Origin: an uncultured Nitrososphaerota archaeon
GTDB taxonomy: Archaea > Thermoproteota > Nitrososphaeria > Nitrososphaerales > Gagatemarchaeaceae
Assembly: GCA_963703285.1 (NCBI GenBank)
Contig: OY969807.1
Span: forward strand, 2,016,001-2,080,000
DNA length: 64,000 bases
Reading direction: 5' to 3'
Below, piece by piece: positions 728 to 28,508 of this stretch (position 1 is the first letter of the stretch; each line of letters starts with the position of its first letter). Below the pieces are notes generated by a model. The model was not told where the DNA came from and ran no database searches. It was given only the letters and a program-made list of their open reading frames with translations. The translations under genes were made by a program, and so were the position numbers.

Positions 728-2641
728 ATGGCGGGTGGTGAGAGGAGGCTCGCGGCGATCATGTTCACCGACATCGTGGGATATACCCGCCTTTCACAGG
801 CCGATGAGTCTCTTGCGCTGGAACTCCTGGAGGAGCACCGCGCTTTCCTCCGCCCGTCGTTCGTCGCCCACGGGGGGTCCGAGGTGAAGACGATCGGGGA
901 CGCCTTCCTCGTGGAGTTCAAGAGCGCCCTCGACGCCGTTCTCTGCGCCGTCGAGATTCAGAAGAAGATGCGGGAGCGCGCAGAGGGAGCGGCTCCCTCT
1001 AGAAAACTGGAGCTGAGGATAGGGGTCCACGTCGGGGACGTGGTACACGGGCGGGACGACATATTTGGCGACGCTGTGAACGTCGCCTCGAGGATCGTCA
1101 GGCTCGCGGAGCCTGGCGTGACGTGCATCTCCCAGCAGGTCTTCGACCAAGTCAGGAACAAGACCGCACTCGACTTCGAAAGGATTGGAGACGTCGAGCT
1201 GAAGAACGTCAACCTTCCCGTCGGCGTCTACAGAATCAACCTGGAAGCGAGGGGGCAGCAGAAGGGCGAGCGCCCGGGACCAAGGAGAAGGCTGGCGGTC
1301 CTGCCCTTCGCCAACATCAGCCCCGACCCTAACGACGAGTACTTCGCCGACGGCCTCATGGAGGAGCTGATCTCGAAGCTCTCGGACGTCCGCGACCTGA
1401 AGGTAATCTCCAGGACCTCCGCGATGAGCTACAAGCGGAAGGAGAAGAAGGTCTCGGAGATAGCGAGGGAACTCGACGTCGGCTCGGTTATAGAGGGGAG
1501 CGTAAGGAAGGCGGGCAGCAGGATCAGGATCTCGGTCCAGCTGGTGGACGCCCGCACGGAGGAGCACCTCTGGTCGGCGAACTACGACAGCGAGCTGAAC
1601 GACATCTTCGCGATCCAGAGCGACGTCGCCTCCAAGGTGGCGAGCTCGCTCTCGTCGGGATTCTTCTCGGAGACGAAGAGGGAGGACACCAGCGACGTAG
1701 AGGCTTACACCCTCTACCTCAGGGCGATCCAGCTCCTCAACGAGGCCAACGAGGCGAGCCTTAGGGAGGCGGTCGTCTTGCTCAATCGGGCCATCTCGAA
1801 GGACCCTGCCTTCGCCCGTGCACACGCGGGTCTGGCCGATGCGTGGGGGGCCCTGGGCTCAATGGGCTACGAGGACTTCGCGACGGCCACCAGCCGGGCC
1901 GAGGCCTCGGCGCTGAAGGCTCTCGACCTCGGACCAGGTCTCGCGGAATCGCACTCCTCAATGGCATCCGCGAACTTCCTGCTCGACCGGTTCGACTCGG
2001 CACTGACCGAAGCCGAGGAAGCCATCCGTATCAACCCGAACCTCTCCGACGTGTACATCTCGCTCGGAATCCTGTACACGATTCTGCGCACCCCAGAGGA
2101 AGCGCTGTCACAGTTCAAGAGGGCCTACGAGCTCGATCCCCTGTCCGTCGTCACGGCGGATCTTCTCGCCGCCGCGGCCTATCTGGCCGGAGAAGGGGAC
2201 CTTGCGCTGGATGTCCTGGCGAGGACGAAGGAGTTCAACCCGAACCACTGGAGGGTCTACGTCTCGATGGCAGAGTACTACATGGACAGCCGAGACTTCG
2301 GTGAGGCCCAGAGGATGCTGGACACCGCTAGAAAGATGAGCCCGGCCGAACCCTCCATCAGGACCGTTCAGGGCGTGCTGTTCGCTCGCGCGGGGCGAAG
2401 GAAGGAGGCGGTGGACACGCTGAACGAGATACTCGCCGACAGCAAAGAGTCGGTCCGGCTCTTCGGGCGGCTCATGATAGGCACGGCGCTGGACGACCTC
2501 GACGAGGCTTTCACGGCCCTGATGCGGATGGCGGAGATACACTCGTGGCCCTTTCTCATCAGGGCCGACCCGTTCTTCGCAAAGCTGCGAACGGACCCGC
2601 GCTATCTGGAGTTCAGCACCAAGGTGGGGCTGCAGGCATAG
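728..2641 (+). CDS. Class III adenylate/guanylate cyclase with TolB-like domain and TPR repeats
   Basis: RRLAAIMFTDIVGYT, KTIGDAFL, DIFGDAVNVASR, LAVLPFANIS, followed by TPR-like helices. Confidence 0.9.
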   Translation: MAGGERRLAAIMFTDIVGYTRLSQADESLALELLEEHRAFLRPSFVAHGGSEVKTIGDAFLVEFKSALDAVLCAVEIQKKMRERAEGAAPSRKLELRIGVHVGDVVHGRDDIFGDAVNVASRIVRLAEPGVTCISQQVFDQVRNKTALDFERIGDVELKNVNLPVGVYRINLEARGQQKGERPGPRRRLAVLPFANISPDPNDEYFADGLMEELISKLSDVRDLKVISRTSAMSYKRKEKKVSEIARELDVGSVIEGSVRKAGSRIRISVQLVDARTEEHLWSANYDSELNDIFAIQSDVASKVASSLSSGFFSETKREDTSDVEAYTLYLRAIQLLNEANEASLREAVVLLNRAISKDPAFARAHAGLADAWGALGSMGYEDFATATSRAEASALKALDLGPGLAESHSSMASANFLLDRFDSALTEAEEAIRINPNLSDVYISLGILYTILRTPEEALSQFKRAYELDPLSVVTADLLAAAAYLAGEGDLALDVLARTKEFNPNHWRVYVSMAEYYMDSRDFGEAQRMLDTARKMSPAEPSIRTVQGVLFARAGRRKEAVDTLNEILADSKESVRLFGRLMIGTALDDLDEAFTALMRMAEIHSWPFLIRADPFFAKLRTDPRYLEFSTKVGLQA

Positions 2642-2754
2642 AACGCGCCCGAGACCTTTCCAAGACGTCCGGGTCCAACAGGCCCTAGGGCTGCTTTTCT
2701 CCCAGGACAAGCGAAACGCTATTCTCCCCGTCGGAAGAGGCTGCCGGCTCAGAC

Positions 2755-3612
2755 ATGACCACCTCTGGCAGCAAGCTTTTCGTCGCGGGACGACTCACGA
2801 AGATAGCTCTCCCCACAGAGCTGCGGGGCCATCACGTGCGAGCCCTGTCCGGCGGACTCGTGCTGGACTCCTCTCTCACCGACGATTTCGGGAGATTCCT
2901 GCTCGAATGGCCGGACCGTGGCGCCGAAGGTAACACCTTCGTCGAGCTCCTAGGCCCCGAGGGTGCGGTCTCCGAATCAAGGGAACTGGCGAGGGCCGAC
3001 CTGGATTCGCCTCCGGTCGTAGCCTTCTCCGGGGAGGGTGTGGTGGGCTTCGAGGCCTCCCCCCAGGACGGCGACCGCAGGGACAGGTTCGTGGCGGAGG
3101 GCTGCTATCCGGTCTATGTGGCCCCGTCCTGCCTGGGGGTGACGCTCTCTTGGACCGGCCCCGAGGGCTCCCGCGTCTCGATCCTAAGCGGCGGAGAGGC
3201 CCTCCAAAGCGGGTTGCCTCACGTGGGGTCGCTGAAGGTCACGGACGCCCAGAGCAGCTCGTACACAAGGCGAACGTGGCTCGCCGGAGCGGGGCCCGAC
3301 CAGTTTTCGGACCTGACCGTCGAGGTCCGACGGTATCCGTCCCTCTCGCTCGTCATCTGGGGATTGGCGCTGTGGCCTCCGGGTCAGGGTGACTTCGGCG
3401 CATCGATAAGCTGTCCCGCCGGAGAGGAGGGATTGGCCGTGACGGTGAGGAGCTCAGACCTGGAGATTGTGCCCGATTTCGAGATCAGAATCTCCCCGGG
3501 GACGACCTGGGCCACGACCCGCGTGCCGATGGGCTCCAAGAAGGGGGTCGCGAAAATCACGGCCTCGGCTCGCGGATTCGCACGAGACGCCGTCACCTTC
3601 TCGGTGAAGTAG
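2755..3612 (+). CDS. Hypothetical protein, beta-rich
   Basis: 285 aa ORF with ATG start and host-like codon use; no motif recognised. Confidence 0.6.
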   Translation: MTTSGSKLFVAGRLTKIALPTELRGHHVRALSGGLVLDSSLTDDFGRFLLEWPDRGAEGNTFVELLGPEGAVSESRELARADLDSPPVVAFSGEGVVGFEASPQDGDRRDRFVAEGCYPVYVAPSCLGVTLSWTGPEGSRVSILSGGEALQSGLPHVGSLKVTDAQSSSYTRRTWLAGAGPDQFSDLTVEVRRYPSLSLVIWGLALWPPGQGDFGASISCPAGEEGLAVTVRSSDLEIVPDFEIRISPGTTWATTRVPMGSKKGVAKITASARGFARDAVTFSVK

Positions 3613-3815
3613 TCTTGGTGCTACCCTGTCCCATGAGATTGGACAACCGGTCAGCTGTCTCAGTTGTGCAGAAAAACGAGACCTTCGGTGAAGAGAGCCT
3701 AGGACGAGCCGGCGGCTCGGGCGAGACGAGCATCAAGACCGGGACTCTAGAGTAAGGAATCGGCTCTGCGAATCACGTCGAAGTCTTAAATCCGGTTGAA
3801 TCACAACGTGAGCTC

Positions 3816-4409
3816 ATGTCGGAGGACAGGTTCTGCAGAGAATGCGGCGCAGAACTGCCTCCCGGGAGCGCCTTCTGCCCGAAGTGCGGCGTTCCTGTTG
3901 GGCAGGCCCCAGCCACCTCCAGCGGCGCACTGAGCGGCATCGACGCGTTGATCAAGGACCCCGCCGCCCAGAACTACTGGCTCAAGCGCTTCCTCGCCAT
4001 CCTCGTCGACGTGATCATCGTTTTCGTGATCCTCGTGGTGATTGCCGCGGCCGTCGCGATACCTGGTTTCGTACTGTCGGGGACAGCGGGAGTGACTTTC
4101 CTGTTTGCTGGGGTCTTCGCGATTGCAGCGGGGCTCATCATCTTCCTCTACTTCATAGTGGCTGAGGTGACGCGGGGAGCGACAGTTGGGAAGAGTGCCT
4201 TCAACCTGAAGGTCGTCGGGCCCAACGGAGGAAACCCTACCTTTATCCAGTCTCTGGTAAGGAACATCAGCAAGATCTACTGGATTCTGCTTCTTCTTGA
4301 CGTCGTTGTTGGCCTGGCCACTTCGAAGCAGTACACCCAGAAGTTCAGCGACAGGCTCGTCGGCACTTCGGTCGTCGAATCAAGGCCCCGGCATTTGATT
4401 GACAGATAG
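3816..4409 (+). CDS. Zinc-ribbon plus RDD family membrane protein
   Basis: FCRECG...FCPKCG; KRFLAILVD, TVGKSAFNLKVV, QKFSDRLVGTSVV. Confidence 0.85.
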   Translation: MSEDRFCRECGAELPPGSAFCPKCGVPVGQAPATSSGALSGIDALIKDPAAQNYWLKRFLAILVDVIIVFVILVVIAAAVAIPGFVLSGTAGVTFLFAGVFAIAAGLIIFLYFIVAEVTRGATVGKSAFNLKVVGPNGGNPTFIQSLVRNISKIYWILLLLDVVVGLATSKQYTQKFSDRLVGTSVVESRPRHLIDR

Positions 4410-4471
4410 CTTCGGTCTGGCGTTCCTGCCACCAACGGTGGGTCACGCAGGACTCGAGCGCCGCCCGACGC

Positions 4472-4508
4472 TTACTCCTCGTCGAGGAACTCGGCGGGGT
4501 TCGGCGGC
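4472..4508 (-). repeat. Copy of aEF-2 3' end (encodes PPNPAEFLDEE*)
   Basis: ttactcctcgtcgaggaactcggcggggttcggcggc has 4 differences in 37 bp versus 20818-20854. Confidence 0.85.
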
Positions 4509-4570
4509 CCATCGGGGCGAACGCTCCTCAAAAGGTTGAATTAGGCAGCGGCCCTCGAGCCTTCCAGACC

Positions 4571-4948
4571 TTGCCAGAGGACGCGCCAAGCACGAACCCG
4601 GGAGCGGTGAGCGACCACCTGGCCAACGAGCGGACGTACCTCGCTTGGGTCCGGACGGGCATCGCGGTCATCGCCCTCGGATTCGTCGTGGCGAAGTTCG
4701 GGTTGCTGGTAAAGGAGCTCGCCCCGTCGGCTCCCTCGACCTCCTACGGGTTCTCGTCGGACATCGGGATAGCGCTGGTCATCGTCGGCGGGCTGATGCA
4801 GCTGCTCGCCCTGAGCCAGTTCGTCCTCAACCAGCGCAGGATTAGGGGTGGCAGGTACGAGCCGAGCAGAGGGATTGAGGTCCTCATCTCCGTCCTGGTC
4901 TTCGCGGTGGCGCTCCTGCTGGTGGTCTACCTCGCGGTCACGACGTGA
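4571..4948 (+). CDS. DUF202/YidH family membrane protein
   Basis: DHLANERTYLAWVRTG signature, three TM segments. Confidence 0.9.
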   Translation: MPEDAPSTNPGAVSDHLANERTYLAWVRTGIAVIALGFVVAKFGLLVKELAPSAPSTSYGFSSDIGIALVIVGGLMQLLALSQFVLNQRRIRGGRYEPSRGIEVLISVLVFAVALLLVVYLAVTT

Positions 4949-5041
4949 GGGTGCGGTCGGGCCGCCTGACGCCCCTCGCCGGCAGTGGACGAAGTCGGCG
5001 CCCGGGCTACACCGCCCTTGCGTCCCTCCATCTTGAGCTGC

Positions 5042-5063
5042 CTGCTCCTTGTCGACGAACCCT
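5042..5063 (-). repeat. Degenerate copy of aEF-2 3' end
   Basis: ctgctccttgtcgacgaaccct versus ctactccttgtcgatgaactct (3 mismatches in 22); stop codon lost. Confidence 0.5.
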
Positions 5064-5335
5064 CGAGTTCAGGGTCAGGGCCGACGCCGGAAAATCGGGG
5101 TACGCATCGGCGGCGCCGCTCCGTCTGCGTACTACCCCTTCGGGGGCAGGAAGGATTCGTTCTACGCGGTCCTGCACGCCCAGATCGACACGGTCGACTT
5201 CTTCACCGACAAGAAGATAGCGATATCGAAGTGAGAGTTCCGGACGGCTGTCAGGCACTAAGGGTCTCTTCTTCGGGGGGCTCTCAGAGCTAAAAGGCGC
5301 GGACGGCTGACGCCTCGGGTGGAAGGTGACACGAA

Positions 5336-6586
5336 CTGCCCCTAGGTCGGGGCGTAGTTCTCATACTTGGGTCGCGGGTCGTGAGAACCTTCCCGCTCGG
5401 AATCTTGGGCGTCCTACTCCCAGTCTACCTCTCGGCGATCGGGTCGTCGGTCTTCGTGGGCCTCTTCTTCTCCCTTTCCGCTCTATCTAGCTTCCTGGTC
5501 CTACTGCTGCTCGGACTGCGGGGCCAAAGAATCCGGGTACGCAACGCCCTGGTCGCCCAAATCTTGCTCTTCTCGGCATGTCTCACGGTGATGACATTCT
5601 CCCCGATAGCCGCGCTCTTCCTAGTTGCGGCCGCTATCTCGATCACGAACTGGGCCCCCGGTGGGGGCAGCGGCACCGCAGGCGGCGCCTACAACACCTC
5701 CGTCAACATACTACTCAGCGAAAACTCCGAGCCGAGTGGCAGGACCTTGGCGCTCAGCCTCTCGTCGGTAATCGGGGCGCTTTCGTTCGCGGCGGGGGCA
5801 TATTTCCTAAGCACCCTTAACATCCCCCGCTCCGAACTCGTGATCTCCCCTCTCACGAACGGTTCTCTCAATCTTGCGAAGCCCTCGACAGTATTTGCTA
5901 TCTCGGCGATCACCCAGCTCCTGGCTGCCGTCCTCTTGCTTAGGGTCAAGAACAAGAGCTCGGTGATCTCGGACAACGCGGCACCGCGGGGCGGACCCAG
6001 CGGCGGCCCCCAGGACCGGAGTACCGCGGTCGCGGTCTTCAGGCAGGCCTTCTCGTTGATTGCCGCCGAGTTCTCAAACGGTCTGGGGAACGGCATCTTC
6101 ACCCAACTCGTGCCCCTTTGGCTCTACGTGCGCTTCGGCATAAGCCTCGGGGAGGTGGCCGAGATCTTCTCCGTCGTCGGGGTGCTCACTGCGTTCATCG
6201 TGCTAGCATCTCCCCGGTTGGAATCGAGGATTGGGTCGATAAACGCCATATTCGCCGCCCGGTCCCTGTCGGGCGCCCTCCTGGTCGTGACTGCTCTCGC
6301 GCCGAGCTTGGTCGTCGCGTTGATTCCCTACTTCGCGTCGCTGGTCTTCTCCCGGGTCTCGCTCCCGATTCAACAGTCGTTCGTCTTCGCAAAGGTGAGT
6401 CGGGGCGAGTGGACGAGGGGAGCCAGCATGATCGCCACGGCAAACGTGGCGGGGACGGTGATAGGGCCGACGCTGGGCGCCTTTCTTCTTCTCAACGTCA
6501 ATCCTGGCCTGCCCTTCTTCATCGCGGCGCCCTTCATCCTCCTCAGCGCTTGGATATACCGAAGGTTCCTCCACCAGAGCCACTGA
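5336..6586 (+). CDS. MFS transporter (probable CTG start at 5336; ORF track start 5381)
   Basis: About 12 hydrophobic segments; frame open back to CTG 5336, which is preceded by GGAAGGTGA. Confidence 0.8.
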   Translation: MPLGRGVVLILGSRVVRTFPLGILGVLLPVYLSAIGSSVFVGLFFSLSALSSFLVLLLLGLRGQRIRVRNALVAQILLFSACLTVMTFSPIAALFLVAAAISITNWAPGGGSGTAGGAYNTSVNILLSENSEPSGRTLALSLSSVIGALSFAAGAYFLSTLNIPRSELVISPLTNGSLNLAKPSTVFAISAITQLLAAVLLLRVKNKSSVISDNAAPRGGPSGGPQDRSTAVAVFRQAFSLIAAEFSNGLGNGIFTQLVPLWLYVRFGISLGEVAEIFSVVGVLTAFIVLASPRLESRIGSINAIFAARSLSGALLVVTALAPSLVVALIPYFASLVFSRVSLPIQQSFVFAKVSRGEWTRGASMIATANVAGTVIGPTLGAFLLLNVNPGLPFFIAAPFILLSAWIYRRFLHQSH

Positions 6587-6663
6587 GACGCGCCGCGCCG
6601 TCGCGGCCGCTGCGTGGTCGTGGGCACAATCCCTATTATCAGAGGCCCTTCGAAGTCTGGGCC

Positions 6664-8061
6664 ATGCCCAAGCGCTCGAACTACCCGCCAGCAAGGTACC
6701 CCAACTTCAGGCCGGTATCGAGAGCGGTGCTCAGGCGCAGGATAGGGTCGATAGTTGCGCGGCCACCCTCCGAGGACCTCGAGAACCAGCCACACATGCC
6801 CCGCTACGGCATAAAGAAGGGTGACCGTGTTCTGGTGATAGCTCTGACTGAGTTCGACCCCCTCGTCGTCGAGGAGTACGTGGAAGCGATGAGGGCGTCC
6901 GGCGGGAAGGTCGACCTCCTTACGATCGACTCGAAGCCGACGGTGCCGCCTGAAGACGCAGCGGTGCAGGAGGCAGAGAGCATAGAGCCCAGCGGAGACA
7001 AAGACGTCGTCTACACAAGAATGACCAACCTATTGAACCCCAACTCTCTGTCAGGCCTGGTCCGGGCCGAAGGCTACGACCTGGTCGTGAGCGGCACCGC
7101 TGGGCCCCTCCCCAGAGTTCCATACAGATGGGTGAGGATGGAGTACATCAGCCGGGAGGAGTTCTCGAGCCCCCAGATAGACTTCCCCTTCGAGCTTCAG
7201 TCACTGATAGACCGGAAGGTGTTCGAGGCAATTCGCAGTTGCGAGAGGGTAAGGATCACCGACCCCGAGGGAACGGACGTATCTTTCACGAACTACGATG
7301 ACAAGCGACCCTTGGCCATGGCACACGAGTACGGCAAGCCCATCAACTTCGGATATGGCGGCATCGAGGACTGCACCGGAGTGATTGCAGGCACGCTGAA
7401 CCACCTGGGCGCTTTCCCCAACTGCAGGGCTCACGTCAAAGACGGCCTGATAGTGAAGGTGGAGGGAGGGGGAAAGTACGGAGACGTGTGGAGGGAGAAG
7501 CTGGAGAAGTACCGGGACGTCGTATTCCCGGAATATCCGATGCGAACCGCGATGAAGCTCCCCGAAGATGGCGCCCCGAAGATCCGAACCCAGAGACCAG
7601 GCTTCTTCTGGTACTGGGAATGCGCCATCGGAACGATCCCCGGAGTATTCAGGCTCAGAGACGAGGGCGCGATGACCCACTTTGCGAACTTCCTGCACGA
7701 CAGGAAGCGCGCGGGCTACCTTCACCACGGCTTCGGGGGTTCCAACAACTCCGCCCCGTTGCTGATCAAGGCCGGTCTTCCGTGGACTCACGTCCACCTA
7801 CACAACATGTTTGCCACCTACGAAGGGCGAACCAAGAACGGCGAAAGCGTGAAGGTGATCGATAGGGGTCACCTGACCGCCCTGGAAAACGCGGACGTTC
7901 GTGCCCTTGCCGCCAGGCTAGGAGTCTCCAACATGCTGAGCGAGGTCTGGATACCCGCCGTCCCGGGAATCAACGTTGCCGGAGATTACGACGACTACTC
8001 GGCAAACCCATCCGAGTGGATAAGGTCAGAGGCGAAGAAGCACCCTACTCTCTCCGCGTAA
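6664..8061 (+). CDS. Metalloenzyme of aminopeptidase T (M29)/NicX-like fold, function uncertain
   Basis: ATG at 6664; VRITDPEGTD, VKVEGGG, WECAIG, LHHGFG, HVHLH motifs resemble that fold. Confidence 0.55.
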   Translation: MPKRSNYPPARYPNFRPVSRAVLRRRIGSIVARPPSEDLENQPHMPRYGIKKGDRVLVIALTEFDPLVVEEYVEAMRASGGKVDLLTIDSKPTVPPEDAAVQEAESIEPSGDKDVVYTRMTNLLNPNSLSGLVRAEGYDLVVSGTAGPLPRVPYRWVRMEYISREEFSSPQIDFPFELQSLIDRKVFEAIRSCERVRITDPEGTDVSFTNYDDKRPLAMAHEYGKPINFGYGGIEDCTGVIAGTLNHLGAFPNCRAHVKDGLIVKVEGGGKYGDVWREKLEKYRDVVFPEYPMRTAMKLPEDGAPKIRTQRPGFFWYWECAIGTIPGVFRLRDEGAMTHFANFLHDRKRAGYLHHGFGGSNNSAPLLIKAGLPWTHVHLHNMFATYEGRTKNGESVKVIDRGHLTALENADVRALAARLGVSNMLSEVWIPAVPGINVAGDYDDYSANPSEWIRSEAKKHPTLSA

Positions 8062-23007: not shown

Positions 23008-23075
23008 AAACTAAGCCTGCTTCGAAAGCCGTCCGATGCGTGATGGTTATAACGTTTTACGCATTGTAAGTCGCC

Positions 23076-26000
23076 TTGCCCTCAACCGAAACCGACATTC
23101 CGACCGCCCAGACAAATCCCGTAATCTCAACTCCAGAGTCTTGGAGACAACGAGCTAACTCCGAACTAGAGAACATAATCCAGCTCTTCTCATCGAAAGA
23201 ACTTCCAGACCTGTGCGCGAAGGCAATCATCAACGCCCCTGAGAAACCCTCCTCAAAGTGGTCGTTCGGAAACCAACTTCTCATGCTCCTGGCTGGAACC
23301 TCTGATGCCCGCGGTTTCAGGCAGTGGAACGAAGTTGGGCGCTGGGTCAGCAAGGGCGCGAAGGCGTTCTGGATCCTGGGGCCGGTCAGGAAGAAGGTCA
23401 AGACCAGCAGAGACGCCTTAGAAGACCAGGGAGAAGGGGCGCAGGAGTTCAGGGAAATCCTCGTGGGGTTCAAGGCGATTGCCGTCTTCAGGTACGAGGA
23501 CACCTACGGCAAGGACCTCCCTGTCTACGAACCGAGAAGCACGCCTCCGCTCATGGAAGTCGCCGAGAGGTTCGGCATGAAGGTCCAGTACGAGCGACTC
23601 GCCCCGGGCGTGTACGGAGCTACCGACCACACGAACAAGACAATCGTCTTGGCCACGGAAGACTGGGACACCTTCTTTCATGAACTAGGCCACGCCGTCC
23701 ACAGGAGTTTCGAACCTAAGAGCGGTCACGGGCAGGAGCTTGAGGCGGAGACGGTAGCTCAGCTCGTCGCAGCCACCCTCGCCAGGCTCTACGACAGACC
23801 AGCAGACAACTTCAGCTGGAGCTACATCGCCAGCTATGCAGCCTCGAACAGCCCTCAGCAGGTCGGCAGAATGTGCATGCGTGTACTAGCGCGTCACGAA
23901 AAGAGGTAGCCTGCTACCTCTCTGCTGTAAGGAGCAATGCCCGAAGAACTGTAGTCAAACATCAGAACAGCCGTCCTAAACCGTAGGACTATATTCCCCT
24001 ACCTACCACAACTATTCCATGCAAAGTAGCGCCATTCGGACAAAGGTATTAATGACGCACGACCACATCAAACACAGACACGACATGAAGACTTCCAGAA
24101 GAGGAATTGGAACAGCAATCATTGCCATTGTTTCAGTCGTGGTCATCCTGGTCGGAGCGACAGGAGTCATTGTACTCACGTCACAGTCGAATACTTCCCA
24201 TTCTTCCAGTCCATCGACTTCTTCCAACTTATCATCGACCACTACTCTGCCGGTCAATACCAGTCAAACTCTTACCACCCAGTCGCAAACGACCTCGACG
24301 ACGATCTCTAGCTCGTGCTCGGGGTATCAGTCGGGCGGTGATTGTCTTGCGACCTACAACTACACTTTCATCGTTTCCGTAAACTATACTGGTCCGTGGA
24401 AGTTGACGTATCTGGGATACAACAACCTCGGCCAGACCAATCCTACGAATGTCAGTGGGAGCTACACTGGTAGCGGTTTCTTCGCCAAGAACGTTACCAT
24501 GACATCAGTAGTTACCGGCGGCCTGACTCTTTGCGCCACAGCACAGAAACTCGACAGCTCCAACAATACCCTCATCGTAACCGTCACTGGCTCCAATGAA
24601 ACATCCGTTCCGTATGGGTCTACCTCGTACTGCGCGAGCGCAGTACCATAAGCTGGAACACCTCATCACCAGCATGCTCAGTCATCTCCATCCCACACTA
24701 CAGTAGGTAAGGCTGGGCGTCCTCGACCGCAAGGTCAGGACTCCCGAAGGTGAAAGTCGTCTGGCTTGTTGGGCTCTGAGCAGAGTCCAGCATGGGGCTA
24801 GCCCCAGACATAGACAGCCGATAAGGGAACAGCCTAGGTTCCCGAGACGGCGACCTTAGGACGGACACGGCAACGTTAAGGAATCCACAACAGGTAGCGC
24901 ATGCGCCATGCGAAGACGCTAGGATAGGACGAAGCGCGCATGGTATAGAGAGCTACCACACTTTACTCAAGGACGAAGTGTGGCAAATCCCCTCCTTCAG
25001 GCAGGCGAGAACCGGCCAGCGAGCTGGAGCTCTCTCGGTAACTGGTGGGTGCCTAAATCCGTCCGCAGAAGTGCTCCTTACAGAACGTGAGACCCAACCC
25101 GGTCTGACTCCCGTCGATAAAGGGCGAGAGGATAGGACGGCTGCGTCCGACTTGACCGGGTTGGCTCCGAGGAGTCATAGTACCCTGAACGTCGGCCAAT
25201 TACCGACCTGTGGGGAAGGACTCTAGCCTGAAATCCGAAGTCTGAACTGTGCAGAAGGATGGATTCAGTCCACGAAACACAACAGGAGGTGAGAGAATGG
25301 ACTCAAACAATCAGTTGGGTGAGCAATCACCCAATCCAGTAGTCCGCAAGGACGAAGGCAGAGTCATTCTCCATATCCAGAGTGGGCTCGCCATAGCAGC
25401 AACAAGACAACCGAACAAACGGTTCCACAACCTACACCCGCTACTCTGGAGAAGAGAGTGGCTCAAATCGGCTCTGGAAGCAGTCCTAGACAACACTGGC
25501 GCGAAGACCTCAGGCGTAGACGGAGTGTGCGGGGCAGACCTGCACGAACCGTCTGCTAGGGCCAGATTTGTCGAGGAACTGCGGACAGAACTGAAACACA
25601 AGACCTACCACCCCTCGCCTGTCCTGAGGAAGTACATTCCGAAGGCCAGCGGAGGGAAACGACCAATAGGCATTCCAACGCTGAAGGATAGGACAGTTCA
25701 GATGGTCTTGAAGATGGTTCTCGAACCAATCTTTGAGGCCGACTTCCTGCCCAATTCCAACGGCTTCCGACCTGAGCGAAGCACGCTGGAGTGCGTATTG
25801 CCCATGTATCAGTACGGGGACAGCAAGCGTCTGTACGAATGGGTCATCGAGGGAGACATCGAAGGGTGCTTCGACAACATCGACCACTGGATACTGATGG
25901 AAGCTATAGAACGAAGGATAGCCGACCCAAAAGTCCTGTGGCTGATCCGCCGATTCCTCAAGGCACCCGTCATCGAGAAGGGCATCCGAACTCAGACCAA

Positions 26001-27244
26001 GAAAGGAACCCCGCAAGGCGGAGTCCTTTCGCCACTCCTAGCCAACATCTACCTCAACGAGTTTGACCAGCATTGGTACGAGAGCTGGGGCAAACTCACC
26101 TACAAGCAGAGAAGACTGCGACGTGAGAAAGGGCAGGCAAGCTGCGTGCTGTTCAGGTATGCGGACGACTTCATCCTGAGCGTGAAAGGCACTCAGGAGC
26201 AGGCCACCGCAATCATGGACAACATACGCAGCTTCTTCACGGAGAAGCTGAGGCTGAGCCTGTCCGCAGAAAAGACGCGTGTCGTGCATCTGGAAGCTGG
26301 ATTCGATTTCCTCGGATTTCGCATCCAGCGAGTAAGGCTAGACCACGGCATGTGCGTCAGGATACGACCAACACAAAAGAACCTACTCCGACTCAAGTAC
26401 AAACTGCAAGCCATGCTAGGGCCGAGCGCGAAGAGCGACGACCCTCAGATGAAGATTGCAGCCATGAACAGAGTCTTGAGAGGATGGGCAAACTACTACA
26501 GAACCGTCAACTCACATCAGCAATTCGCTACGGGAGACTTTCTGGCACAGCGCCTGTTCTATCAATGGTATTGTAGGAAATACCAGATAAGCGTCCAGAA
26601 ATGCCTCTCCGTCGTGCTCAGAAACGGTAGTGTAGTCATCCAAAGAGGGCCGGTCAAGACCGAACTCTTTAGGATGAACTCGAACAAGAGCATGCACACC
26701 TCACTGAATCACAGACTTGTTTGGAAATACAGGTCAATCAGCAATCCATACATCCGCCAGAACCACACCGCAACCAGCGTATCAGAGGAAAACGACGACC
26801 CAATCGTTGATGTGCCCAACATCCACCCGATTGCGCCCGAGTACGATGAAACCTATCTCTCCAACCGCTTTCTGGCGTTTGAGAGGGATGGATGGAGGTG
26901 TACTCTGTGCGGCAGTCGGGAAAGACTTCAGGCGCACCATAGGGAACCTGTCCCCAAAGGAATGGTCTTCAACCCGCAGGTCGTGCACCGGGTCGAAAAT
27001 CTTCAGACATTGTGCGCGACATGCCACAGTAGGCTACCTAGAAACTAGGCAGCCGAAACCCATCCATCCAATGCACAAGAAGAGGACGGAGGACGTAGGG
27101 GTGAAAGCCCGGTGATGCGAAAGTATCACGCCGGGTTTGGGAGGGAGGGTGCGTGTTTCCTGCCTGAAGCAATTCTAGCGTGGCAACGCACTCTTACCTC
27201 AGGACAGGACCAAGAAAGTCCTCGACCTCATCTATGCGACCTAA
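23076..27244 (+). CDS. ArdC-like ssDNA-binding/zincin antirestriction protein, split by a group II intron (exon 1 23076-23888, exon 2 27203-27244)
   Basis: WSFGNQLL, RGFRQWNEVGRWVSKGAKA, FFHELGH, ELEAETVA; splicing gives ...CMRVL|DRTKKVLDLIYAT*. Confidence 0.8.
24041..24052 (+). promoter_or_regulatory. Putative BRE/TATA promoter of the intron cargo gene
   Basis: CAAAGG-TATTAA about 33 bp upstream of ATG 24085. Confidence 0.45.
24085..24651 (+). CDS. Secreted/membrane-anchored S/T-rich protein inside intron domain I
   Basis: MKTSRRG followed by hydrophobic IGTAIIAIVSVVVILVG (class III signal-like), S/T linker, beta-rich domain with 4 Cys. Confidence 0.8.
   Translation: MKTSRRGIGTAIIAIVSVVVILVGATGVIVLTSQSNTSHSSSPSTSSNLSSTTTLPVNTSQTLTTQSQTTSTTISSSCSGYQSGGDCLATYNYTFIVSVNYTGPWKLTYLGYNNLGQTNPTNVSGSYTGSGFFAKNVTMTSVVTGGLTLCATAQKLDSSNNTLIVTVTGSNETSVPYGSTSYCASAVP
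25297..27048 (+). CDS. ltrA: Group II intron reverse transcriptase/maturase with HNH endonuclease
   Basis: RPIGIPTLKDR, GDIEGCFDNI, GTPQGGVLSPLLANIYL, YADD, FDFLG, RGWANYY, CxxC..HH..NLQTLCxxCH; AGGAGGT before ATG 25297. Confidence 0.97.
   Translation: MDSNNQLGEQSPNPVVRKDEGRVILHIQSGLAIAATRQPNKRFHNLHPLLWRREWLKSALEAVLDNTGAKTSGVDGVCGADLHEPSARARFVEELRTELKHKTYHPSPVLRKYIPKASGGKRPIGIPTLKDRTVQMVLKMVLEPIFEADFLPNSNGFRPERSTLECVLPMYQYGDSKRLYEWVIEGDIEGCFDNIDHWILMEAIERRIADPKVLWLIRRFLKAPVIEKGIRTQTKKGTPQGGVLSPLLANIYLNEFDQHWYESWGKLTYKQRRLRREKGQASCVLFRYADDFILSVKGTQEQATAIMDNIRSFFTEKLRLSLSAEKTRVVHLEAGFDFLGFRIQRVRLDHGMCVRIRPTQKNLLRLKYKLQAMLGPSAKSDDPQMKIAAMNRVLRGWANYYRTVNSHQQFATGDFLAQRLFYQWYCRKYQISVQKCLSVVLRNGSVVIQRGPVKTELFRMNSNKSMHTSLNHRLVWKYRSISNPYIRQNHTATSVSEENDDPIVDVPNIHPIAPEYDETYLSNRFLAFERDGWRCTLCGSRERLQAHHREPVPKGMVFNPQVVHRVENLQTLCATCHSRLPRN
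27105..27202 (+). ncRNA. Group II intron domains V and VI
   Basis: aagcccggtgatgcgaaagtatcacgccgggttt hairpin; agggtgcgt/acgcactct and gagg/cctc stems. Confidence 0.92.
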
Positions 27245-27491
27245 AGCAACCCAAATGCGGCTATTATTCAATAGCCATTATCTCTCTTTTTTGAACGAGT
27301 TTTTAGATGAGAAACCGACAAAGGCCCCCTGTTTAGAGAGTTTTGTTCATTACAGGATATGTTGCATTCGTTGCGCGAGAGACTTTGACTATAGAAGTGC
27401 GATGACCAATCAAGTTTATACGATTCCTTATTCTGAAGAGCCGCCATGATTAAGCCTGGTCTTGCCTTGGTTGCGGTCGGTGGGTTCTCAC

Positions 27492-28109: not shown

Positions 28110-28508
28110 ATGCCTCTCAAATACCCTGAATTCAGCGAACTTGCAACGATTAACAAGGAAGCCGTCGCTCTCACAGGTGAAGAACACAACTACGACTCGT
28201 ACGATGAAGAGGGGCTACGAGCAATACTTGCAAATCTTCAGGGGCTGTACAACGACCTTCCCGGTCTTGAGTGCATAACTAACAAGGTAACTTACCTCAT
28301 TTTCAGCATAGCCTACGAGCAACGCTTTCACGAAGGAAACAAGCGTACAGCCTTGATCATCGGGGAGACGTTTCTGAAGAGAAACGGGTACACAATCGAC
28401 ATCGAGGACCAAGGATTATTGCAAATATTGGATAGGTGTGCAATTCAAGCGGCAACCTTAAAAGACCTCTACCCAGAAATCAAACGTCTGATCAAGAATG
28501 ACCGATGA
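28110..28508 (+). CDS. Fic/Doc family protein
   Basis: QRFHEGNKRTA motif, FLKRNGY. Confidence 0.85.
   Translation: MPLKYPEFSELATINKEAVALTGEEHNYDSYDEEGLRAILANLQGLYNDLPGLECITNKVTYLIFSIAYEQRFHEGNKRTALIIGETFLKRNGYTIDIEDQGLLQILDRCAIQAATLKDLYPEIKRLIKNDR

Follow-up and report, generated by a model that had tools for sequence, protein, structure and literature searches.

The stretch of DNA considered here (the window) is 64,000 nucleotides (nt) of contig OY969807.1 from an uncultured soil archaeon of the Nitrososphaerota (Gagatemarchaeaceae-like; assembly GCA_963703285.1, positions 2,016,001 to 2,080,000 of the forward strand), and it holds a group II intron with an unrelated gene in the loop of a domain I (DI) hairpin. 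This is most probably a mobile intron, active or recently so, that accommodates a passenger gene in a peripheral DI hairpin and is copied together with it by reverse splicing. The evidence consists of the anatomy of the intron, relatives whose slot is empty or filled, covariation in the stems, two identical copies in one genome, a promoter motif and protein family of host type, and near-identical introns that carry different cargo. Coordinates of the individual features are collected in Table 1.

As an initial annotation, made from the letters of the window, had claimed, the element (copy W1) is a group II intron, and it is complete. Domains V and VI (DV and DVI) match Rfam family RF00029 at 57.1 bits (gathering score, 40), with model positions 1-77 covered in full, and the alignment includes the AGC triad as well as a bulged A in DVI, 7 nt before the 3' end. 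This is the sole Rfam match at the gathering level within the window. The Rfam models for domains I to IV found nothing at gathering score in the intron, with one subthreshold match at domain III (DIII) (group-II-D1D4-1, 19.2 bits, gathering score 35). The intron-encoded protein (IEP) matches Pfam families RVT_1 (E value, 1.2e-39), GIIM (2.3e-10), and HNH (4.3e-5), scores 353 bits against TIGR04416 (cutoff, 300), and has as its nearest solved relative 6me0_C, the reverse transcriptase (RT) of a IIB intron (193 bits). The ratio of nonsynonymous to synonymous substitution rates (dN/dS) between the IEP and its relatives is 0.21 to 0.25. In this lineage the intron starts with GCGCG and ends with (C/U)AG in every relative examined.

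The extra DNA lies in the terminal loop of a DI stem, where the initial annotation had put it. By position, the hairpin that bears it is the first after stem I(ii) and so IA-like. Where the window has the sequence from 23948 to 24704, relatives without an insert read ACUGC-GNRA-GCAGU, a GNRA-capped hairpin, so that the insert must be about 23956-24696, in agreement with the limits first proposed. How well supported is the surrounding fold? An RNAalifold consensus of nine empty relatives (seven distinct rows) has 126 pairs, of which 37 are compensatory; none of 500 shuffles scored as high and slid controls gave 1 to 6, and because the consensus was taken from the same alignment, the compensatory counts lean towards it. 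Stems I(i) and I(ii) and the slot hairpin are all in the consensus, and both sides have changed in three of the five pairs of the slot hairpin. ctgtaaggagca and tgctccttacag, the arms of I(ii), are 100% complementary over 12 nt, and the small hairpin at 23902-23921 is present in relatives, with variable sequence. The initial annotation had named four nested pairings, all of which are found where it placed them; covariation supports I(i), I(ii), and the distal, cargo-bearing hairpin. The remaining one, atgccc (23937-42) with gggcgt (24715-20), is probably wrong. ViennaRNA gives it a probability of 0 with or without the insert, and RNAalifold offers GCCC with an upstream GGGC instead.

Thermodynamic folding with and without the cargo leaves I(i) at a probability of 0.88 to 0.91 and I(ii) at about 1.0 either way. 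In each of the 12 filled copies examined, the two arms beside the insert can pair with each other, and their duplex energies run from -8.9 to -20.9 kcal/mol (mean, -13.7, versus -9.1 for 132 cross-pairings), and the helix extensions that close the modules vary in sequence from module to module. One further feature of the 5' part of the W1 module may be mentioned here. Positions 23971-23979 (CCGTCCTAA) are perfectly complementary over 9 nt to conserved DI sequence at 24856-24864 (TTAGGACGG); the same positions can pair locally with 23985-23990, and a similar hairpin with compensating changes is seen in the module of locus L129.

Is the filled hairpin peculiar to this one intron? Of 301 genomes of the order that were searched, 10 (this one among them) contain relatives, and these 10 belong to a single family. 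An RT-profile scan of genome contigs added six loci (a single-RT query gave none, whereas an alignment query did); one RT-scan locus, 45% identical and from a Chloroflexia metagenome-assembled genome (MAG), was left out of the lineage, and the rest are labelled Nitrososphaerota, Nitrososphaerales, or 'Ca. Gagatemarchaeum'. In a 17-mer scan of metagenome contigs, 80 of more than 120 loci were seen, 15 were kept, and 65 were dropped (10 of these passed one of two flank filters yet lacked a visible hairpin context). The same kind of scan of IMG/VR returned five chance matches and none to this intron. Among the matches listed, the state of the loop is known for 29 copies, of which 13 are empty and 16 filled. 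Empty slots read ACUGC-GNRA-GCAGU or a compensated variant (e.g., GCUGC/GCAGC or ACCAC/GUGGU), and filled slots hold inserts of 0.36 to 0.75 kb. The filled copies are W1, two others in the same genome (W2 and W3, described below), G216:C55, G294, L043B, L045, and nine metagenome copies, two of them cut by contig ends. Full-length filled introns with an open RT gene and a DV are W1/W2, L043B, and L152. A tree of a 385-nt ribozyme segment contains one supported clade (97/98) with both empty and filled members, and at least two changes of state are needed. The initial annotation had proposed looking into the loop of homologous introns for other genes or none, and both occur. On this comparison, a filled slot is a recurrent feature of the whole intron lineage and not a single case.

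Some relatives differ elsewhere in their periphery. At locus L043, a single MAG contig carries two introns (1705-4640 and 5019-7952) about 380 nt apart. The first has an empty DI loop and an insert of about 400 nt past the RT gene, and this intron, by eye, interrupts a Zn-ribbon-like open reading frame (ORF); the second has a filled DI loop. Locus L033 (~3960-4010; G109:C59) has an insertion of about 50 nt in the loop between exon-binding sites 2 and 1 (EBS2 and EBS1), another peripheral site that tolerates extra RNA. In a more distant relative that starts with GGCGCATCACGAAAG (L035 ~3580-3700; G056:C1), the slot hairpin is apparently missing. That would be consistent with the hairpin being dispensable, and the copy may be degenerate.

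Has the loaded intron moved? The genome, a single contig of 2.25 Mb (C1), contains a second copy, W2, on the minus strand at 1882207-1885520, and it is identical to W1 at 3314 of 3314 nt. When 1.5 kb on each side is compared, identity ends at the intron ends, bar one shared G at the 3' end, so that the mobile unit is 23889-27202. W2 lies in a TetR-family gene, splitting its TetR_N helix-turn-helix, and because it is antisense there, the gene is disrupted without rescue by splicing. In the register of W1, the W2 site pairs at six of seven positions of intron-binding site 2 (IBS2) and four of six of IBS1. The chance of at least 10 of 13 pairs at this site is about 0.005 by our own binomial estimate, and the pattern is, to judge from the pairing, that expected of ectopic reverse splicing. 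Identical loaded copies at two unrelated loci mean that the loaded intron has moved, and the idea of a retro-mobile intron as a gene vehicle gains accordingly. In Logan contigs, assembled from the short reads of public runs that may include the source sample, both 5' junctions are seen and the whole insert is spanned (contig X1 record 3 covers 23889-24862). No joint lacking the intron or the cargo was seen in contigs of four DNA runs, which says nothing about the absence of such joints.

The third copy, W3 (L007 ~4022-5321, i.e., G000:C1:~838022-839321), is degenerate. It retains the 5' end, the stems, and DV/DVI (45.5 bits) and holds a homologous cargo ORF of 160 to 172 amino acids (aa). Most of the sequence from DI to domain IV (DIV) has given way to unrelated DNA, in which a membrane-like ORF of 130 aa (4918-5310) runs antisense. 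Downstream, W3 is followed by what is left of an ArdC-like gene as its 3' exon, and its 5' flank is, by eye, the start of an anthranilate-synthase-like gene.

W1 itself interrupts an ArdC-like gene that is single-copy in the genome. The exon junction GTACTA|GACAGG restores ...CMRVL|DRTKKVLDLIY, and the joined product ends ...GRMCMRVL|DRTKKVLDLIYAT and a stop. An uninterrupted homologue reads ...GRLCMRVLDRTKKVLELIY (it bears a related intron of its own 60 nt upstream), and CMRVL|DRTKK is contiguous in 24 further sites of related genomes. Since the junction is contiguous in uninterrupted homologues, a 5' splice site downstream of the cargo ORF is excluded; the identical copies, too, share exactly 23889-27202, and the site is thus 23888|23889 and not one beyond 24651.

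Target recognition points to the same place. The EBS2 segment was compared with the exon in 14 intron copies with at least 14 nt of 5' exon, the score being the best window inside a 14-nt segment; the first anchor of L106 and the row of L129 were left out as mis-anchored or degenerate. It pairs at 7/7 positions in eight copies, 6/7 in four, 5/7 in one, and 4/7 in one. EBS2 sequences differ by sublineage and covary with the 5' exon. The EBS1 alignment column pairs at 5/6 positions or better with the exon end in seven of nine introns. Unoccupied ArdC-like sites (n = 24, not all independent loci) read TGCATGCG-N-GTCCTN|GAC; 16 of them match the EBS2 of W1 at 7/7 positions, and its EBS1 finds 5/6 pairs or better in 22. 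Because these unoccupied sites match its EBS2 and EBS1, W1 is taken to occupy its cognate homing site, the CMRVL|DRTKK position of ArdC-like genes. In view of the pairing with these 24 sites, two other candidates were dropped, namely, that EBS1 of W1 is GGACGA and that W1 sits in a noncognate site. A genome-wide search for a "perfect" cognate site under loose rules yields hundreds of chance matches.

What does the passenger encode? The initial annotation had described an intact surface-protein gene with its own TATA-like box, and that description holds: the ORF is open, and both the upstream motif and the protein family are of host type. The motif TTCGGACAAAGGTATTAA has a single match in the window and none in 100 shuffles. 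Genome-wide, it occurs at 19 sites with one mismatch or fewer (three of them in intron copies), against 0 for the reversed control. Allowing two mismatches gives 26 sites, 21 with an ORF of at least 60 aa inside 160 nt; 19 of these 21 ORFs have, by eye, a basic-then-hydrophobic N terminus, and the motif stands mostly 15 to 40 nt upstream. We infer that TTCGGACAAAGGTATTAA acts as a promoter. Genes for small N-anchored proteins, each after TTCGGACAAAACTATTAA, also occur in clusters at ~1284-1289 kb, ~1651-1680 kb, and ~1713-1716 kb of the genome contig, and these look like a regulon with a common promoter or operator.

The cargo protein begins with a basic N terminus and a hydrophobic anchor. 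These are followed by a linker, 36% Ser plus Thr, in which nine NxS/T sequons occur; the C-terminal domain, some 110 aa long, has four conserved Cys residues. By eye, the N terminus of the protein (MKTSRRG|IGTAIIAIV...) is compatible with a prepilin-peptidase motif followed by a hydrophobic helix; it matches no pilin family. Pfam and NCBIfam gave no family above the cutoff for this protein or for 10 other cargoes (no LAGLIDADG), and a PDB profile search with it produced a chance match only (E = 0.8). Homologues number 50 at an E value of 0.01 or less in the protein collection. Matches occur in 47 of 97 genomes of the family, many of the weak ones at the N terminus only. At 29 homologue loci that were fetched, all blastn matches to the intron query fall within the cargo (query 147-762) and none in the ribozyme, and the homologues are therefore free-standing genes as far as blastn shows.

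Cargoes in the DI loop are diverse and share a common build. Grouped by blastp (E value of 1e-3 or less, single linkage), they fall into five groups, or seven if N-terminus-only links are ignored, and one group takes in a free-standing 74-aa gene of this genome. In 15 of 15 intron-borne proteins, the hydrophobic segment begins in the first 11 residues. Similar genes are found at two other positions: in domain II (DII) at G165 (about 168 aa) and just past the RT stop codon at G279:C126 (207 aa, the W1 promoter motif being present here too). Other inserts in DII or past the RT gene hold antisense membrane-like ORFs. How might one cargo be replaced by another? L043B and L152 are inserted at one and the same exon position and share 96.9% identity over 2600 nt, with unrelated cargo modules; over the first 76 nt and the exon, they are just 88% identical. 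Near-identical introns with unrelated cargo point to recombination between introns.

Put together, these observations suggest the following course. A DI hairpin that is normally 5 bp with a GNRA tetraloop holds a passenger module, and the ribozyme core is unchanged. The module lengthens the helix and brings in a promoter motif of host type and an ORF that encodes a small, N-anchored extracellular-type protein. Complementary arms keep it looped out, which lets I(i), I(ii), and the remainder of DI still form. The intron presumably splices, and the loaded RNA would reverse-splice into DNA, guided by EBS2 and EBS1, at its cognate site and sometimes at an ectopic one. Transcription of the cargo probably starts at its own promoter and gives a short-leader mRNA. 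As no oligo-T tract lies between, RNA synthesis from there may proceed through to the RT gene. Recombination in the conserved flanks may move modules from one intron to another, and cargo may be kept for a benefit to host or intron.

Table 1. Features of the loaded intron, its exons, and its second insertion site (window coordinates unless a locus is named)
Feature	Position	Strand	Details
5' exon, ArdC-N-like/HExxH host gene	23076..23888	+	ORF; Pfam ArdcN 24 bits (cutoff, 22.6)
IBS2, GCATGCG	23875-23881	+	7/7 pairing with EBS2
IBS1, GTACTA	23883-23888	+	4/6 pairing with EBS1
Homing target sequence, TGCATGCGCGTCCTC|GAC			
Group II intron (W1)	23889..27202	+	3314 nt; ends GCGCG...CCUCAG
Stem I(i), 5' arm tcacg	23894..23898	+	Pairs with cgtga 25086-25090; one compensatory pair
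Local hairpin between I(i) and I(ii)	23902..23921	+	9 bp; arms 23902-10 / 23913-21
Stem I(ii), 5' arm ctgtaaggagca	23925..23936	+	Pairs with tgctccttacag 25072-25083; 12 bp
Cargo-bearing hairpin, 5' arm actgtagt	23948..23955	+	Pairs with actacagt 24697-24704
Cargo module	23956..24696	+	741 nt; missing from 13 related copies (among matches listed)
Promoter-like motif TTCGGACAAAGGTATTAA	24035..24052	+	32 nt ahead of ATG
Cargo ORF	24085..24651	+	188 aa; open; longer listed ORF begins at 24019
EBS2, CGCAUGC	24898..24904	+	Variable segment following CACAACAG; complementary to exon -14..-8 (GCAUGCG)
EBS1 hairpin	24956..24983	+	Loop 24964-24975; EBS1 AAGGAC at 24969-24974
Domains II-III	25091..25240	+	Approximate; DIII motif CAUAGUA...GAAGG at 25172-25221; conserved among relatives
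IEP (RT, maturase X, HNH; YADD)	25297..27048	+	583 aa; GGAGGTGA upstream of ATG
Domains V and VI	27103..27202	+	Rfam RF00029
3' exon	27203..27244	+	Final 13 host-gene codons and stop
First oligo-T tracts (T6, T5) downstream of host gene	27287..27304	+	T-run scan
TetR gene halves	L008 6072-6206 and 9524-9898	+	Interrupted by W2, L008 6208-9521 (-)

Around the intron, oligo-T tracts are sparse. Such tracts act in the termination of archaeal transcription. On the plus strand, 23056-27286 (4.2 kb, taking in the host gene and the intron) contains no run of T4 or longer, and the T6 and T5 tracts, putative terminators, lie 43 to 60 nt beyond the host stop. The ArdC-like gene is closely followed, at 28110-28508 (+), by an ORF of the Fic/DOC family that scores 24 bits, at the cutoff. 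No integrase was found among the seven larger neighboring ORFs that were scanned.

Several findings weigh against a mobile, functional cargo-bearing intron. Group II introns typically have the boundaries GUGYG...AY, a convention that is not defining, and this one does not have them. None of the public runs listed with intron sequence is an RNA run, and splicing and expression are accordingly predictions from DNA. The intron sits 13 codons ahead of the host stop codon, which makes selection for splicing weak, and its own IBS1, GTACTA, pairs with EBS1 at only 4/6 positions (mismatches at -4 and -1), so that splicing there may be inefficient. In the folding calculations, the 8-bp stem that closes the loop has a probability of 0.01 with the 741-nt cargo and 0.94 to 1.0 with a tetraloop. 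Some filled relatives are damaged: L045 has a broken RT frame, and W3, G216:C55, and G294 are remnants without most of the ribozyme, each with its cargo ORF intact. Only 3 of 16 inner branches of the ribozyme tree are supported. The strict form of TTCGGACAAAGGTATTAA stands ahead of the ORF in only 5 of 29 cargo-homologue loci of other genomes and thus marks a subset, mainly this genus. Finally, cargo dN/dS is 0.31 to 0.72, and values as high as the last indicate weak constraint.

Another reading is that the module is kept for the intron itself, as an internal promoter (and RNA spacer) that makes RT expression independent of the host gene, the ORFs having come along by chance when a promoter was captured. 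All 14 of the 14 DI-loop modules seen are in the sense orientation, the stretch from the cargo promoter to the end of the host gene has no T4+ run, and relaxed dN/dS (0.56 to 0.72) is found in close pairs. The RT gene has its own GGAGGTGA, and W2, being antisense to its host gene, would receive no host-driven sense transcription. Why, then, would ORFs of 75 to 214 codons stay open in diverged copies, and all encode anchored extracellular-type proteins? The module past the RT gene at G279:C126 cannot drive the RT, and in W3 the cargo is intact where the RT has been lost. We consider it unlikely that the module serves the intron alone in this manner, and such a role is compatible with, and not exclusive of, a mobile intron that carries passenger genes.

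A very improbable account is that of a one-off, inactivating insertion into a decaying intron, with the two copies arising by DNA-level duplication or recombination. The lack of RNA runs, the 4/6 IBS1 pairing at both the W1 and W2 sites, and the degenerate state of several filled relatives would all suit it. It is hard to reconcile with an identity between W1 and W2 that ends precisely at the intron boundaries, in unrelated flanks, or with the match of the W2 site to the EBS2/EBS1 register that was estimated above. RT, DV, and DVI show no damage and evolve under purifying selection, which counts against decay, and the 16 filled loops include three different full-length introns. Still less credible is the notion that the insert is a mobile element in its own right, be it a twintron, an insertion sequence (IS) or miniature inverted-repeat transposable element, or an archaeal bulge-helix-bulge intron, excised ahead of ribozyme folding. 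Inverted arms do flank the insert, and archaeal group II introns can contain nested introns (PMC4424553). Yet 23956-24696 has no Rfam family at an E value of 10 or less except a 12-bit chance match, and no DV or group I core. It has no transposase, target duplication, or other ribozyme signature, and no terminal repeats past the hairpin arms, which are the original hairpin extended; the IS traits that the initial annotation had held up as a counterindication are thus missing. The module is found nowhere in the genome outside the intron copies, and by eye the arms show no 3-nt/4-bp/3-nt bulge-helix-bulge geometry.

Group II introns are seen as minimal selfish retroelements with genes for mobility only. 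A natural, promoter-bearing cargo of host type would add a route of gene mobilization by reverse splicing in archaea, and a lineage with unusual GCGCG...AG ends is hereby documented in Nitrososphaerota. It is possible, if somewhat doubtful, that the DI hairpin and, less so, DII and the 3' part of DIV are cassette slots in this lineage; that these introns capture genes of a host regulon for small secreted or anchored proteins, exchange them through recombination in the flanks, and shuttle them between loci and genomes; that the captured promoter feeds the RT; and that the elements have an integron-like role.

How does this intron compare with known systems? Mobile bacterial and organellar group II introns such as Ll.LtrB and T.el4h are alike in their six-domain ribozyme, DIV-encoded IEP, EBS/IBS recognition, homing site within a gene of mobile-element type, and ectopic retrotransposition. 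They differ from the present intron, which has an extra, unrelated, promoter-bearing gene in a DI hairpin loop and GCGCG...AG ends. Host-type genes do associate with self-splicing introns elsewhere: rps3 resides in group I introns of fungal mitochondrial rnl, and integron gene cassettes associate with group IIC-attC introns, the cassettes being outside the intron. Like ours, these cases couple a host-type gene to a self-splicing intron and show variation of a cassette kind at one slot. They differ in intron class or in arrangement; here the gene is inside the retro-mobile RNA itself.

A 2022 survey of 296 archaeal genomes found introns almost only in Halobacterota and Thermoplasmatota, with Nitrososphaerota not among the phyla that had them (PMC8919778). 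The forms of intron ORF described are RT, degenerate RT, LAGLIDADG, ORF-less introns, twintrons, 3' extensions, and engineered cargo in DIVb (PMC4424553, PMC8632793, bioRxiv 10.1101/2024.12.10.627823, PMC8919778, PMC8524655). In the literature searched, no natural non-mobility gene borne in a group II intron was found, which agrees with the initial remark that an intron serving as vehicle for an unrelated host-type gene was not recognized as described; subscription papers and supplements could hold a precedent. LAGLIDADG group II introns of fungal mitochondrial rRNA and of Thiomargarita likewise loop out a non-RT ORF (PMC4424553, PMC13190283), but that ORF is a mobility enzyme replacing the RT, while here the RT is kept and a surface protein of host type is encoded in addition. 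Twintrons (PMC4424553) and an intron split by a transposase gene (PMC8919778) are similar in having extra DNA within the intron; the insert described here is without ribozyme or transposase, and the core helices are uninterrupted. Engineered targetrons, too, carry a foreign gene of hundreds of nt in an intron loop and deliver it by retrohoming (PMC8524655). Targetrons are artificial, use DIVb only, and lose efficiency with cargo (PMC8524655), whereas the slots described here are natural and recurrent, lie in DI (and also in DII and 3' DIV), have a native promoter, and, in DI, tolerate 0.4 to 0.75 kb of foreign RNA. Such natural DI slots could guide the design of cargo-carrying targetrons.

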